A DNA stretch of 64,000 nt from Squalus acanthias (Eukaryota), in NCBI GenBank assembly GCA_030390025.1, contig CM059431.1, positions 135,162,001 through 135,226,000 of the forward strand, written 5' to 3'. Below are positions 4,467 through 62,264 of this stretch, piece after piece. Position 1 is the stretch's first letter; the number at the start of each line of letters is the position of its first letter. The notes under the pieces are model-generated. The model saw only the letters and a list, made by a program, of their open reading frames with translations, did not search any database and was not told the DNA's origin. Made by a program: the position numbers and the translations under genes.

Positions 4467-5152
4467 TCTCATTGTCATAGAATCATAGAATCATAGAATG
4501 GTTACAACACAGAAGGAGGCCATTCGGCCTGTCGAGCCTGTGCTGGCTCTGCAAGATCACTTCAGCTAGTCCTACTTCCCTGCCCTTTCTCCGTAGCCCT
4601 GTAAATTGTTTTCCTTCAGGTACTTATCCAATTCTCTTTTGAAAGCCACGATTGAATCTGCCTCCACCACCCTTGCTGCGTACAAAAGTTTTTCCTCATG
4701 TTGCCTTTGGTTCTTCTGCCAATCACCTTAAATCTGTGTCCTCTGGTTCTCGACCCTTCCACCAATGGGAACAGTTTCTCTCTATCTACTCTGTCTAGAC
4801 TCCTCATAATTTTGAATACCTCTATCAAATCTCCTCACAAACTTCTCTGCTCTAAGGAGAACAATCCCAGCTTCTCCAGTCTATCCACATAACTGAAGTC
4901 CCTCAGCTCTGGAACCATTTTTATAAATCTTTTCTGCACCCTCTCTAAGGCCTTCACATCCTTCCTGAAGTGCGGAACCCAGAATTGGACACAATACTCC
5001 AGTTGAGGCCAAACCAGTATCATAACTTCCTTGCTTTTGTACTCTATTCCTCTATTTATAAATCATGATGCGGAGATGCCGGCATTGGACTGGGGTGGAC
5101 AAAAATGAGAAGTCGCACAACACCAGGTTATAGTCCAACAGATTTATTTAAA

Positions 5153-5193
5153 ATTACAAGCTTTCGGAGCTATCCTGCCCCTTCTTCAGGTAC
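5153..5193 (-). ncRNA. Minimal type I hammerhead ribozyme motif
   Basis: Minus strand: TAC-CTGAAGA-A-GGGGC-AGGATA-GCTCC-GAAA-GCTT-GTA; intact core, stem II, palindromic AAGCTT in place of stem III. Confidence 0.8.
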
Positions 5194-5751
5194 AGTTACA
5201 ATGAGTGAATCTACAAAAGTTCACAGAATATAAACACAGAAACTGCAGAGATACAATCTTTCCTTACATCAAAGACACACCAAGAGCACAGCCAAGACAA
5301 TGAGATGTGTCCCAGGGGGTCCAACGTGTCAAATCCTGCTGACTGCAGCAGATCTCTCTCCATATCCCTTCCTCTCTCTCCGTCTTTTTAGGGGTTTGTT
5401 TTTTGTGTTTGTTTTTTTGTGTTTGTTTTTTTTAAAACTGGAAAGACAGACAACGATGTCATGTCACGCTACAGAACGTGACTTGACATCGTTGTCTGTC
5501 TTTCCAGTTTTAAAAAAAACAAACACAAAAAAACAAACACAAAAAACAAACCCCTAAAAAGACGGAGAGAGAGGAAGGGATATGGAGAGAGATCTGCTGC
5601 AGTCAGCAGGATTTGACACGTTGGACCCCCTGGGACACATCTCATTGTCTTGGCTGTGCTCTTGGTGTGTCTTTGATGTAGGGAAAGATTGTATCTCTGT
5701 AGTATCTGTGTTTATATTCTATGAACTTTTGTAGATTCACTCAGTCAAACT

Positions 5752-5789
5752 TTGCCTGAAGAAGGGGCGATAGCTCCGAAAGCTTGTAA
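5752..5789 (+). ncRNA. Minimal type I hammerhead ribozyme motif
   Basis: TTGC-CTGAAGA-A-GGGGC-GATA-GCTCC-GAAA-GCTT-GTAA; CUGANGA 5756-5762, GAAA 5778-5781, stem I TTGC/GTAA. Confidence 0.82.
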
Positions 5790-7357
5790 TTTTAAATAAA
5801 TCTGTTGGACTATAACCTGGTGTTGTGCGACTTCTCATTTCTATTTATAAAGCCCAGAATCATGTATGCTTTTGTAACCTCTTTCTCAATCTGCCCTGCC
5901 ACCTTCAACGATTTGTGCACATATACCCCCAGGTCTCTCTGTTCCTGCACCCCCTTTAGAATTGTATCCTTTAGTTTATATTGCCTCTCCTTGTTCTTCC
6001 TACCAAAATGTATCACTTTGCACTTTTCTGCGTTAAATTTCATCTGCCACTGTCCGCCCATTCTACCAGCCTGTCTATGTCCTCTTGAAATCTATCACTA
6101 TCCTTCTCACTGTTCACTATACTTCCAAGTTTTGTGTCATCTGCAAGTTTTGAAATTGTGCCCTATACACCCAAGTCCAAGTCATTAGTATATAGCAAGA
6201 AAAGCAGTGGTCCTAGTACCGACCCCCTGGGGCACCACTGTATACCTTCCTCCAGTCCAAAAAACGAGTAGTTTCCTGTCACTTAGCCAATTTCATATCC
6301 ATGCTGCCACTATCCCTTTTATTCCATGGGCTTCAACTTTGCTAGCAAGTCTATTATGTGGCACTTTATCAAACGCCTTTTGGAAGTCCATGTACATTAC
6401 ATCAACTGCATTGCCCTCATCAGCCTTCTCTGTTACCTCATCAAAAAACTCAAATCAAATTAGTTAAACACAATTTGCCTTTAACAAATCCGTGCTGGCT
6501 TTTCTTAATTAATCCACACTTGTCCAAGTGACAATTAATTTTGTCCAGGATTATCGTTTCTAAAAGCTTCCCCACCACCGAGGTTAAACTGACTGGCCTG
6601 TAGTTGCTGGGCTTATCCTTATACCCTTTTTTGAACATTTGCAATTCTCCAGTCCTTTGGCACCACTCCCGTATTTAAGGAGGATTGGAAAATTATGGCC
6701 AGTACCTCCGCAATTTCCACCTTTATTTCCCTCAGCATCCTAGGATGCATCCCATCTGGTCCTGGTGACTTATCTACTTTAAGTACAGCCAGCCTTTCTA
6801 GTACCTCCTCTTTATCAATTTTTAGCCCATCCAGTGTCGCAACTACCTCCTCTTTCACTATGACTTTGGCAGCATCTTCTTCCTTGGTAAAGACAGATGC
6901 AAAGTACTTATTTAGTACCTCAGCCATGCGCTCTGCCTCCATGCGTAGGTCTCCTTTTTGGTCCTTAAATGGCCCCGCCCCTCTTACTACCCGTTTACTA
7001 TTTATATGCCTATAGAAGACTTTTGGATTACGTTTTATGTTAGCTGTCAGTCTATTCTCATACTCTCTGTTTGCCTCTCTTATTTCCTTTTTCACTTCCC
7101 CTCAGAACTTTTTATATTCTGCCTGGTTCTCACTTGTATTGTCAACCTGACATCTGTCATATGCCCCCTTTTTCTGCTTCATTTTACTCTCTATCTCTTT
7201 CGTCATCCGGGGAGCCCTGGCTTTGGTTGCCCTAACTTTCCACCTCATGGGAATGTACCTCGATTGTAACCGAAACATCTCCTCTTTAAAGGCAGGCCAC
7301 TGTTCGATTACAGTTTTGCCTGCCAATATTTGATTCCAATTTACCTGGGCCAGATCC

Positions 7358-22800: not shown

Positions 22801-24016
22801 TTTAGAATTATTGTTTACTGTGGCCATGTTTGATTTACACCCTTGATTTCTCTGCCTTCCACTTTTGCTTTTCTCCTTCCTGTCTTTTGCTTCTATCCTT
22901 GCTTCCCTTTCCTCTGTCTCCCTGCACAGGTTCCCAACCTCCTGCCATTTTAGTTTAAACCCTCCCCAACAGCAGTAGCAAACACTCCCCCTAGGACATC
23001 GGTCCCGGTCCTGCCCAGGTGCAAACCGTCCAGTTTGTTATGGTCCCACCTCCCCCAGAACCGGTTCCAATGTCCCAGGAATTTGAATCCCTCCCCCTTG
23101 CACCATTCTTCTAGCCACGTATTCATCTGAAATATCCTTCTATTTCTACTCTGACTAGTATGTGGCACTGGTAGCAATCCTGAGATTACTACCTTTGAGG
23201 TCCTATTTTTTAATTTACCTCCTAACTCCCTATATTCAGCTTTTAGGACCTCAGCCCATTTTATACCTATATCGTTGGTACCTATATGCACCACGACAAC
23301 TGGCTGTTCATCCTCCCCCTCCAGAATGCCCTGCAGCCGCTCCAAGAGATCCTTGACTCTTGCACCAGGGAGGCAACATACCATCCTGGAGTCTCGTTTG
23401 CGGCCGCAGAAACGCCTATTTATTCCCCTTATAATAGAATCCCCTATCACTATATAACAACAGAAAACACTGGAAAAACTCAGCAGGCTCGGCAGCATCC
23501 GTGGAGAGAGAAACAGAGTTAACGTTTGAGGTCAAAGACCTTTCATCTCTTTCCACGGATGCTGCCTGGCCTGCTGAGTTTTTCCAGCATTTTCTGTTGT
23601 TATTTTGGATTTCCAGCATCTGCAGTATTTTGCTACGCCCTATCATTATAGCTCTCCCTCTCTTTTTCCTCCCGTCCTGTGCAGCAGAACTACCCATGGT
23701 GCCAGGAAGTTGGTTGCTGCTGCCTTCCCCCGATAAGCCATCCCCCTCAACAATATTCAAAGCTGTATAACTGTTTGAGAGGGGGATAGCCACAGGGGAC
23801 CCCTGCACTACCTGCCTGCGCGTACTACTCTGCCTGGCGGTCACTCATTCCCTTCCTGCCTGTGCAGCCTTTACCTGCGGTGTGACCAACTCATTAAACG
23901 TGATATCCACGATGTCCTCAGCATCGCGAATGCTCCAGTATGTATCCATTCGCAGCTCCAGCACCCCAATGCGGTCTGCCAGTAGCTGCAGCTGGATACA
24001 CTTCTCGCACACATAG
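19879..24016 (-). mobile_element. Near full-length CR1 LINE (ORF1 zinc finger/esterase + ORF2 APE-RT), frameshifted
   Basis: (TTTCTATG)n tail; ORF2 pieces 19999-22827; ORF1 SGNH esterase (VIGDSIIRG..HIGTND..DGLHL, 22950-23498) and CEKCIQLQLL zinc finger/zipper. Confidence 0.95.
23455..23637. mobile_element. Small Penelope pLTR fold-back insertion in CR1 ORF1
   Basis: Inverted arms ~23454-23510 / ~23547-23603 plus ~35-nt tail; 13-bp TSD CCCTATCA(C/T)TATA (23442-23454, 23638-23650); truncated hammerhead in the loop. Confidence 0.82.
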
Positions 24017-26003
24017 ATAGTGCAGTTTATGTTGTGTAAGTGGACTTTCAAAAGGCATTTGATAAAGTGCCACATATTAGACATGTTAGCAAGATTGAAG
24101 ACCATAGGACCAAAGGGGCTGTGGCAGCATGGATACAAAATTGGCTCGCAGAGAATAGTGGTGAATGGTTGTTTATTAGACTGGAGGAAAGAATACAGTT
24201 GTGTTCCCCAGGGGCCAGTATTGGGACCACTGCCTTTTTTTTAATATATATTTGTGAACTGGACATAGATATAGGGGGCATAATTTCAATGTTTGCAGAT
24301 GACACAAAGTTTGGAAATGCGGTAAACAGTGAGGAGGATAGTAGCAGACTTCAGGAGGACATTGACAGATTGGTGAAAGGCGCAGACACATGGCAGATAA
24401 CATTTAATGCAGAGAAGTGTGAAGTGATGTATTTTGGAAGGAAAAATGAGGAGAAGCAATATAAACTAAATGGAACAGAGAGACACGGGGGTTCATAGAT
24501 ACAAATCTTTGAAGGTGGCAGGACAAGTTGATAAGGCTGTTAAAAAAGCATACAGGATCCTTGGCTTTATAAACAGAGGCAGAGGGCAGAATTTTCATTG
24601 ACCCGTGGAGGCGGGTTTGGAGGCGTGTGGGGGGTTAAAATAGCAGATTCGGGGGTCCCGAACCCATACCGCCCCCAACCCGCCTCCATGCCAGTTTCAC
24701 AGGAGGCGGGTACCTGATCTGTGCTGGGACCCGCCTCCCCGAGACGGGAAGGGGATTAGTGCCAATAAACTGCCTGTTAACAGGTAGTTAACAGGCAGTT
24801 TTTTGCCTAATCCCTATTTTTAGCCCTGAAGTGTGGGCTTCCCGACAGGTCCGAACCGCGCCGATTTAGCGAGACGGACCGTCGGTCTAGAGGGCTTGGT
24901 GGGGTCGAGATGTCCGGTGTGCAGGTGAGTGATGGGTGCATGAGTGCAGAGGTAAGTGTGTTTGGTGTGTGTAAAGTGTTTTAAGAACTTGTACTTACCT
25001 TAACTTTGTGCTGCAGGCTTCCTTCCTTCAGTTCTCGGGAGTCCCTCAGCTCACCGGCACAGAAAGCAGAATGGCCGCGGAGCTGTCAAAAGCTGCAGTC
25101 TCTGCTTTCTGTGCGGGATTGATTTCTAACTGAGTCTAAGTACAGGGACTCATGTTAGAAATCATATTGTCAGTGTTTGACAGCTTCACAGAGCTGTCAA
25201 ACGCTGACATTTCATCTGTCAAAAGCTCTTGACAGATGAAATTTCAATGGCTGACGTCACCTGTATCCAAGGTACCCTTGATTGGCCTGCTAAGCCCGCT
25301 GGGCGGGCTTAACAAGGTCAATCAAGGGAAAATACAATGGGTTGGCCACAAGTTGATGGAGGCGGGACTACAACCCAAAAAGTGGGAGTCCCGCCTCCAT
25401 CACGTCCCCATTGACAAAATCCAGCCCATAGAGTACAAAAGCAAGTAAGTTGTGATAAACCTTTATAAATCAGGCCTCAGCTACAGTAATGTGCCCAATT
25501 CTGGGCACCACACTTTAAAGGATGTCAAAGCCTTGGAAAGCGTGCAGAGATTTACCAGAATTGGACCAGGAATGAGAGACTTCAGTTATGTGAATAGACT
25601 AGATAAACTGGGATTATTCTCCTGAGAGCAAAGGGGAGATTTGAAAGAAGTGTTTAAAATTATGAGGGGTTTTGATAACATAGATAGGGAGAAACTGTTT
25701 CCACTGGCAGGAGAGTCTGCAACCAGAGGGAACAGATTTAAGGTAATTGGCAAAACATCCTGCGGGGACATGAAGGGAATTTTTTTTACGCAACGACTTG
25801 TTATGATCTGGAATACACCACCTGAAAAGGTGGAGAACCAGATTCAATAACAACTTTTAGAAGGGAATTGGATATATACTTGGAAAGGAGAAATTGGCAG
25901 GGCAATGGGCAAAGAGCAGGGGAGTGGGATTAATTGTATAGCTCTTCAAAAAAGCTGGCACAGAAATGATGGGCTGAATGGCCTCCTTCTGTGCCGATTC
26001 TAT
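24017..26003 (+). mobile_element. Decayed CR1 3' fragment with nested MITE
   Basis: RT ORFs 24040-24498 and 25641-25850; tail GATTCTATG continues after 27746. Confidence 0.88.
24584..25427. mobile_element. Harbinger-type MITE (family B)
   Basis: GGGCAGAATTTTCA / GACAAAATCCAGCCC termini; flanks AGA/ATA; CR1 colinear across it; internal hairpin ~25210-25243. Confidence 0.78.
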
Positions 26004-31243: not shown

Positions 31244-31420
31244 CCCCCTTTGTTCTTTTATCCCCTCCCCCTTTTCCCAGCTTTACTCTGGCCTTAAATC
31301 TATCTGATTTCCGGCTCTTCACAGTTCTGACGAAAGGTCATCGACCTGAAACGTTAACTCTCTTTCTCTCTCCACGGATGCTGCCTGGCCTGCTGAGTTT
31401 TTCCAGCGTTTTCTGTTGTT
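31244..31420 (+). mobile_element. Solo Penelope pLTR fragment with TSD
   Basis: 13-bp TSD ATGTCAGACTAAT (31231-31243, 31421-31433); homologous to 3292-3400 and 23455-23637. Confidence 0.85.
31323..31359 (+). ncRNA. Minimal type I hammerhead ribozyme motif
   Basis: AGTT-CTGACGA-A-AGGTC-ATC-GACCT-GAAA-CGTT-AACT; intact core, perfect stem II, palindromic AACGTT. Confidence 0.82.
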
Positions 31421-61518: not shown

Positions 61519-62264
61519 GGCCCAAAATTTGCGATCGGAGACTTCCCGCGGGCGGATGCCTCCGACCTGTAAAAAATCTACACATTTACCTGGTGGCCCG
61601 GGAGGTATGGAGGCTTGCGATCCTGGGCCTCTCCGGGTCCGCGCAGGCAGAGGCCCACGTATCCCAGGGGCGCATGTGGTTCGCGAGCGCCCCAGGGATC
61701 ACATGGGCTGGCCCAACCAATAAAAGAAGGGAATCCCCAATCATACTTATGGGAGTTGCATACGTACGGAACTCCCATAAGTATGAATGGGGATCACTTA
61801 AAAAAATACACGAACACATGAAATACATTTTTTTTAAATTACATATTTAAAATTAATTAAAATGCCATTTAATTAAATAATTTAAACAACAATTAATTTT
61901 TTTTAAAATTTGAATATGTTTTAACGGGGCTAAAAATAAACTTACCTTATTGGACAGGGTTTTTAACGTATAAATGAGTGATAACATTTTATTTTTCTAT
62001 TTTTTAAAACTCTTATGCTGGTAAAAGCAGGCGTAAGAATTTCACAGGCATTCAGCGGGTAGAAGTTGGGCAAATAGCGCAACTCTCCACCCGCAGAGGC
62101 CCATCTCCCAGGGATGCGGAGGATCTGTCAAAAAGATTCTTGACAGATTGCAAGTTCCGGGTTTTAGCACATGCGCTTTGCATACCTAAACCCGGAACTT
62201 GTGTGGTCCCTACGGGCACGTACACACCTCGTACGTACCCGTAGGGGGTCGCAAAATATGGCCA
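61519..62264. mobile_element. Harbinger-type MITE (family E)
   Basis: GGCCCAAAATTTGCGA / TCGCAAAATATGGCCA; TSD ATT; internal hairpin 61735-61792; related fragment at ~57990-58125. Confidence 0.82.

Follow-up and report, generated by a model that had tools for sequence, protein, structure and literature searches.

Inverted-repeat analysis of the window (the whole 64,000-nt stretch of Squalus acanthias DNA analysed here) revealed two arms, at 5103-5468 and 5477-5840, that form a hairpin with an 8-nt loop between them. The outer parts of the arms (5103-5174 and 5769-5840, 72 nt) match at 100%, and the inner parts (5177-5468 and 5477-5768, 292 nt) at 97%. Aligned with each other, they show a 2-bp indel at 5175-5176, nine substitutions within 5191-5264 and a single mismatch at 5462; the stretches 5103-5174 and 5265-5461, the latter a 197 bp inner part, are identical between them. 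A tail of 40 nt (5063-5102, minus strand) is left unpaired, the partner arm having no counterpart to it; it ends at an ATG (5066-5064) and matches the tail-bearing ends of the other copies described below.

The element is flanked on the plus strand by a 12-bp direct repeat, the left copy of which (5051-5062) lies in host LINE sequence and is identical to the right copy (5840-5851). A second copy of the host LINE within the window contains the 12-mer a single time, and the repeat is therefore duplicated target DNA, a true TSD. A reading frame on the minus strand marks the host repeat as LINE-like; we take it to be a CR1. An earlier sequence-only reading had described the arms, the 8-nt loop, the 40-nt tail and a 12-bp TSD within a LINE. 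All of these were reproduced from the sequence, the host being LINE-like. That reading had also found no credible ORF. Eight ORFs of at least 40 aa overlap the element, and those wholly internal to it are 42-85 aa long; what the earlier reading overlooked is that the loop region holds the last 23 nt of a parental ORF, including the stop codon.

The parent family

A genome search with the element returned 3227 candidates, of which the best 40 by likeness were scored; 30 loci were extracted, 28 of them distinct. Copy counts given below are from pattern searches, and the structural survey comprised about 60 distinct loci. [quoted passage not shown] The ORF matched RVT_1 with an E value of 3.7e-9 and GIY-YIG weakly, with an E value of 0.0014 that is under the Pfam curated cut-off; the motifs are visible in the translation. 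The translation of one natural copy, L013, contains a C-x4-C-x2-C linker of the CX2-5CxxC form before the GIY-YIG domain. In PMC8557442, such a linker is given as a mark of Neptune/Nematis that is absent in Penelope/Poseidon. Placed by its motifs, the parent would be an EN+ Penelope-like element (PLE) of the Neptune/Nematis type. It has in common with the Neptune/Nematis-type EN+ PLEs described in PMC8557442 and PMC3846280 the RT with C-terminal GIY-YIG, a DKG motif, the CX2-5CxxC linker and partial pLTR tandems.

The stop codon of the parent ORF lies at 5479-5481, and the window element corresponds to the family's 3' end: the last seven codons plus stop, a 3'UTR/pLTR with a hammerhead, and the tail. 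The tail-side arm (5103-5468) is 3'UTR/pLTR with its sense on the minus strand and is 97% identical to L013 positions 1-403, and the tailless inverted arm (5477-5840), with its sense on the plus strand, is 96% identical to L013 positions 41-421. In full-length tandem copies, such as L003, the tail-end ATG opens into the RT/EN frame. Loci L003 and L021 belong to a single full-length copy (G000:C3:63271616-63275440), each showing it from a different side, with the order inverted pLTR, pLTR, ORF, pLTR, tail, and with a repeat common to both flanks. This is a young copy, with in-frame stops in the 3' part of the ORF. The family is abundant, 10,391 genome matches reading through the loop-region hairpin. 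The PLE origin proposed from the sequence is supported by the RT and GIY-YIG of the parent, the pLTR, the tail, the TSD and the inverted arm. Derivation from a MITE or other DNA transposon was rejected, as the arms represent the 3'-terminal part of an element that encodes an RT, and the junctions vary among copies. A literature search over the main texts of open-access papers listed none on this PLE family or on PLE arms made from two templates.

Within a 1.5-kb flank, 18 of the 28 loci possess an inverted arm at the terminus, its end lying at reference positions 37-44; this is a sample that was ranked by likeness to the window element, so that 18/28 is not an unbiased genome rate. In three of the other ten loci the inversion runs off the locus, one has an inversion of 26 bp, and six have none within the flank, among them the opposite end of the L003 copy. 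Among 28 loci from the searches that have a tail and an inverted arm, 26 are flanked by candidate TSDs, 7-16 nt in length. Arm end points span reference positions 101-1499, and the junctions show overlaps of 0-10 nt or short inserts. Near-symmetric fold-backs occur elsewhere, with arm end points at 939/941 (L008), 973/985 (L028), 515/539 (L030) and 809/809 (L033). L008, L019, L028 and L033 are near-perfect palindromes of the parent family, 1.5-1.9 kb in length and with coding sequence included. Insertions of the parent family thus normally combine a TSD, a tail on one side and an inverted arm, and their junctions fall at varying places, in agreement with published PLEs.

An inverted 5'-truncated copy with a 30-40 bp tail at one end has been reported for PLEs (PMC8557442), and palindromes at inverted PLE junctions have been interpreted as self-priming (PMC3846280). 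The family shares with the EN+ PLEs of these two sources the inverted 5'-truncated arm, the one-sided tail of 30-40 bp, the variable TSD and the palindrome at the inverted junction. The window copy differs from a typical EN+ PLE in having lost all except the last seven codons, so that its arms nearly abut. The element is very probably a heavily 5'-truncated, non-coding insertion of this abundant EN+ PLE, in the order TSD, tail, arm, inverted arm, TSD. Other insertions of the family, namely L058, L046 and joints found in one sequencing run (X1), also lie in the same LINE region as the target site in the window, which suggests either a favoured AT-rich site in that LINE or its mere abundance.

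Fold-backs at the parental hairpin

The parent carries the loop hairpin at its stop codon. In the window element this parental hairpin (5459-5486, plus strand) is the inversion junction; it has a 10-bp stem with one mismatch and a loop at 5469-5476, and the arms overlap there by 10 nt. The loop is parental sequence and not newly formed, contrary to its earlier treatment as junction sequence. Of 377 40-nt segments over 1.9 kb of the parent cDNA strand, the one with this hairpin folds most strongly (-8.3 kcal/mol, DNA parameters).

A fold-back-type junction pattern was found at 20 places in the genome, compared with the 10,391 read-through matches. Eighteen of the 20 were extracted (15 plus three later); C2340 was seen as a matched string only, and C25:1191731 was left out. 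Five of the 20 are full fold-backs at the hairpin: the window element (L001), L046, L052, L058 and L074. Both arms reach the hairpin in L031 and L061, and L053, L055 and L075 end in a short self-primed extension at it; the remaining places are truncations at or near the hairpin, an asymmetric inversion, or a mutated parent. At about 1470-1510 of L059, short repeats of the hairpin end are stacked at the truncation point, as if by repeated priming.

The five belong to different subfamilies, L046, L052 and L058 being about 68-81% identical to the window element by BLAST. The fold-backs have their own flanks and TSDs (TSDs examined in all but L074). Their stem mismatches are not the same, nor is the loop always borne by the same arm, being on the tail arm in L074. 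A single-clade origin of the five was rejected (delta lnL 124.7, p-AU 1.5e-58; 9 arms vs 65). The group was chosen on structure after a first tree had been seen, and the tree held 74 of 84 arms, with the second L074 arm lost in trimming and the near-junction loci L031 and L061 outside the group. The different flanks, TSDs and subfamilies and the lack of monophyly indicate that the hairpin is a recurrent joining point and not the signature of a replicating unit.

A search for the loop junction with up to two mismatches gave 22 matches, and most of the 20 extracted are ordinary parents with point changes; the one other exact match, L031, has a different junction in which both arms pass through the hairpin. 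The genome search for further copies that the sequence-only reading had proposed thus uncovered, through the fold-back pattern, full fold-backs at the same hairpin in four other loci, though of separate origins. That reading had offered, as one of two possibilities, a one-off snap-back product of PLE reverse transcription. A by-product of reverse transcription it is, but with at least five independent insertions at the hairpin it is not a one-off. Pure snap-back of a single cDNA is ruled out by the one-sided tail together with arms of two variants.

Sequence differences between the arms

The arms of the window element differ at seven family-polymorphic sites within about 70 bp, all at 5175-5245 (partner zone ~5700-5770), out of 292 bp compared. 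At 26 other loci, only 14 family-shared arm differences were found in 9,707 bp (Poisson p 3e-7 against the window element). Differences were counted with multi-base deletions collapsed, a T-rich tract masked, and arms below 90% identity to the reference (L046, L052, L058) dropped. At the indel the left arm has the Y variant and the right arm X; at the remaining six sites the assignment is inverted, while further inward both arms are Y-type. By exact match, the 35-mer of the left arm has no second occurrence in the genome, compared with 58 matches to the X-type 33-mer and three to the Y-type 35-mer. If the arms exchange their loop-II indel, the outcome is a pair of hammerhead variants known from L003 and L020. 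The simplest reading of this mosaic is that an X tract entered one arm and that one crossover between the arms followed at 5177-5190; the X tract could have come from a second cDNA made on another RNA or from later gene conversion.

Since the arms are of differing variants, a simple single-template model does not predict the window copy. One possible account, which we hold only tentatively, invokes two RNA templates: a variant Y cDNA would have extended across the hairpin, folded back and served as its own template, the copy then annealing to a shorter variant X cDNA primed from the other target strand, and a later crossover at 5177-5190 having flipped the interior. The excess of family-shared differences is what this account would lead one to expect, as are the identical, Y-like 197 bp of the inner part, the unique left-arm 35-mer among X and Y types that occur elsewhere, and the real hammerhead variants obtained from the indel swap. 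Against it, the case comes from one locus in the assembly, and the family is itself mosaic, five other places carrying the indel-free C/A combination of the right arm. Moreover, both arms are of the same variant at the 26 other loci, making one template the rule, and ectopic gene conversion after insertion would yield the same picture. It is doubtful, though conceivable, that the locus is a fossil of PLE integration in which each target strand primed an arm on a different RNA, as a dimeric RT would lead one to expect, the joining having followed self-priming of one cDNA at the hairpin at the ORF end.

It is very unlikely that the palindrome or the arm mosaic is an artefact of assembly or polishing. 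Long palindromes are hard to assemble, as noted for PLEs (PMC8557442), and contigs made from 4 of 21 sequencing runs on 4900-5476 included no piece that bridged the junction or spanned the locus. However, 5392-5476 was skipped as repeat in these contigs and short pieces of other copies dominated, so that the result does not amount to absence. The clean 12-bp TSD, the one-sided tail and arm differences that are real family alleles disfavour an artefact, and the four independent fold-backs at the same hairpin speak for biology.

Hammerhead motifs and predicted transcripts

A motif scan located CUGAAGA..GAAAGCUU cores at 5756 on the plus strand and at 5189 on the minus strand, matching the earlier description, made from the letters, of a minimal, dimer-type hammerhead on each strand. 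The plus-strand motif (5752-5789) would be a minimal type I hammerhead with a 4-nt loop II and a 4-bp stem I containing one G-U pair, and its cut is predicted after 5785; the minus-strand motif (5154-5194), also minimal type I, has a 6-nt loop II and a stem I of only 3 bp, with a predicted cut between 5158 and 5157. A covariance-model search, which had been suggested as a check, lent no support: Rfam, run over the entire window with a limit of E<=1, reported no hammerhead, and its matches at the element were generic miRNA hairpin models below the gathering score. By pattern only, 69 of 81 family arms contain the motif, with variation mainly at N7 and in loop II. Three of the 12 misses have an intact core on inspection, and four have core changes.

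Metazoan PLE min-HHRs, as described in PMC4209133, share with the window motifs a short helix I, an extra nucleotide before stem II, a G-C closing pair and a palindromic 15.2-16.2/loop 3. Stem II is 5 bp in the window element, compared with 7-8 bp in the Schistosoma families of that source. Judged by pattern, the motif is a genuine pLTR min-HHR, and the two hammerheads are the pLTR ribozyme copied once per arm. Min-HHRs reportedly do not cleave as monomers and show low cleavage as dimers (PMC4209133). At the window locus the hammerheads are probably inert, because there is one core per strand and thus no cis dimer, because the antisense arm is transcribed before the hammerhead-bearing arm in both directions, and because folding of the full-length transcript gives a predicted stem II probability of ~1e-17 to 1e-18 on either strand.

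The window contains further structures of this kind. At 31320-31420 (plus strand), a second hammerhead-like motif, CUGACGA..GAAA, is followed by a palindrome within a short repeat, which probably represents the end of a pLTR from a different PLE family. A small fold-back at 23454-23603 is built of the same repeat, with 58-nt arms of 91% identity that are 34 nt apart; the arms enclose what is left of a decayed hammerhead, and a short TSD is apparent, as in an inverted insertion of the second family. Short palindromes without spacers are present at 61733-61794 (31-nt arms) and 25196-25255 (30-nt arms).

For the full read-through transcript, folding predicts a duplex of 365 bp (about -666 kcal/mol) that is 96-97% identical to young copies, as would suit a functional hairpin-RNA (endo-siRNA) source silencing the parent family. 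We consider such a function highly improbable. Runs guessed to be RNA gave only short family-wide pieces and none specific to the locus, with 5392-5476 skipped as repeat. Longer near-perfect palindromes elsewhere (L008, L028, L033) mean that the window copy is not special. A dsRNA/siRNA role would fit many other inverted copies equally, and the L008, L019, L028 and L033 palindromes are better candidate hairpin-RNA sources than the window locus.

The other possibility raised by the sequence-only reading, a non-autonomous, retrozyme-like family whose ~365-bp rod RNA carries a hammerhead in either polarity and is copied as a unit, can be dismissed with near certainty: the hairpin junction common to the four other full fold-backs (L046, L052, L058, L074) and hammerhead cores conserved in most arms would fit it, but the five fold-backs differ in subfamily, flanks and TSDs and are rejected as a clade, the 20 pattern places stand against 10,391 ordinary arms, each strand has one hammerhead with no tandem same-strand pair and no cis dimer, and both hammerheads are predicted to be masked in the read-through transcript. 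Non-LTR retrozymes consist of units repeated in tandem, head to tail, whose ribozymes all lie on one strand and release monomer circles (PMC7229834; bioRxiv 10.64898/2026.07.22.740005). As presented in these sources, they resemble the element in being non-coding, with a few hundred bp per arm, a type I hammerhead and kinship to the PLE pLTR. In contrast, the element is arranged head to head with one minimal ribozyme per strand. It lacks head-to-tail repeats with at least two same-strand hammerheads, and it has not been amplified as a unit, the five fold-backs being of separate origin.

Discussion

Taken together, we conclude that the palindrome is a recurrent by-product of insertion, ordinary in kind. 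The window locus, which has no promoter-ORF unit, most likely does nothing. On balance we favour a joining step in which both target strands are primed at two RT start sites and the cDNAs are joined head to head at the hairpin. The GIY-YIG endonuclease would nick both target strands 12 bp apart, and each 3' end would prime reverse transcription, the first from the start site of the tail and the second from about 40 nt further in. The resulting two antisense cDNAs, on opposite target strands, would have to be joined head to head, a step that would need self-complementary sequence or microhomology, which the hairpin could supply. One cDNA, stopping just beyond the strongest hairpin of the family, would self-prime or anneal to the other through the 10-nt overlap, and the outcome would be a near-perfect palindrome.

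In LINE-1 twin priming, cDNA is primed from both target strands, and the insertion shows microhomology at the junction, a TSD, and inversion without duplication. The route proposed here resembles it in two-strand priming, in microhomology at the inversion junction and in the TSD. [quoted passage not shown] A PLE protein has been reported to cleave and extend both target strands, with two RT start sites delimiting the tail; it is a predicted dimer, and the protein-assisted hammerhead was dispensable for insertion in vitro (PMC11167929).

As an element, the insertion is of minor significance, one among many truncated inverted PLE insertions; dual min-HHRs on opposite strands, ~100-700 bp apart, were noted as early as 2014 (PMC4209133). 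Its interest is confined to mechanism, since PMC8557442 states that the formation of inverted PLE ends is unresolved. There its value is modest: junctions recur at the strongest cDNA hairpin and short self-primed ends are found there, and the arms are normally of one variant, with one copy having two. If the two-template origin were true, thousands of young, variant-rich inverted insertions would allow one versus two templates, and junctions versus hairpins, to be counted genome-wide. Such a count would be a test of self-priming versus two-primer models without bench work.
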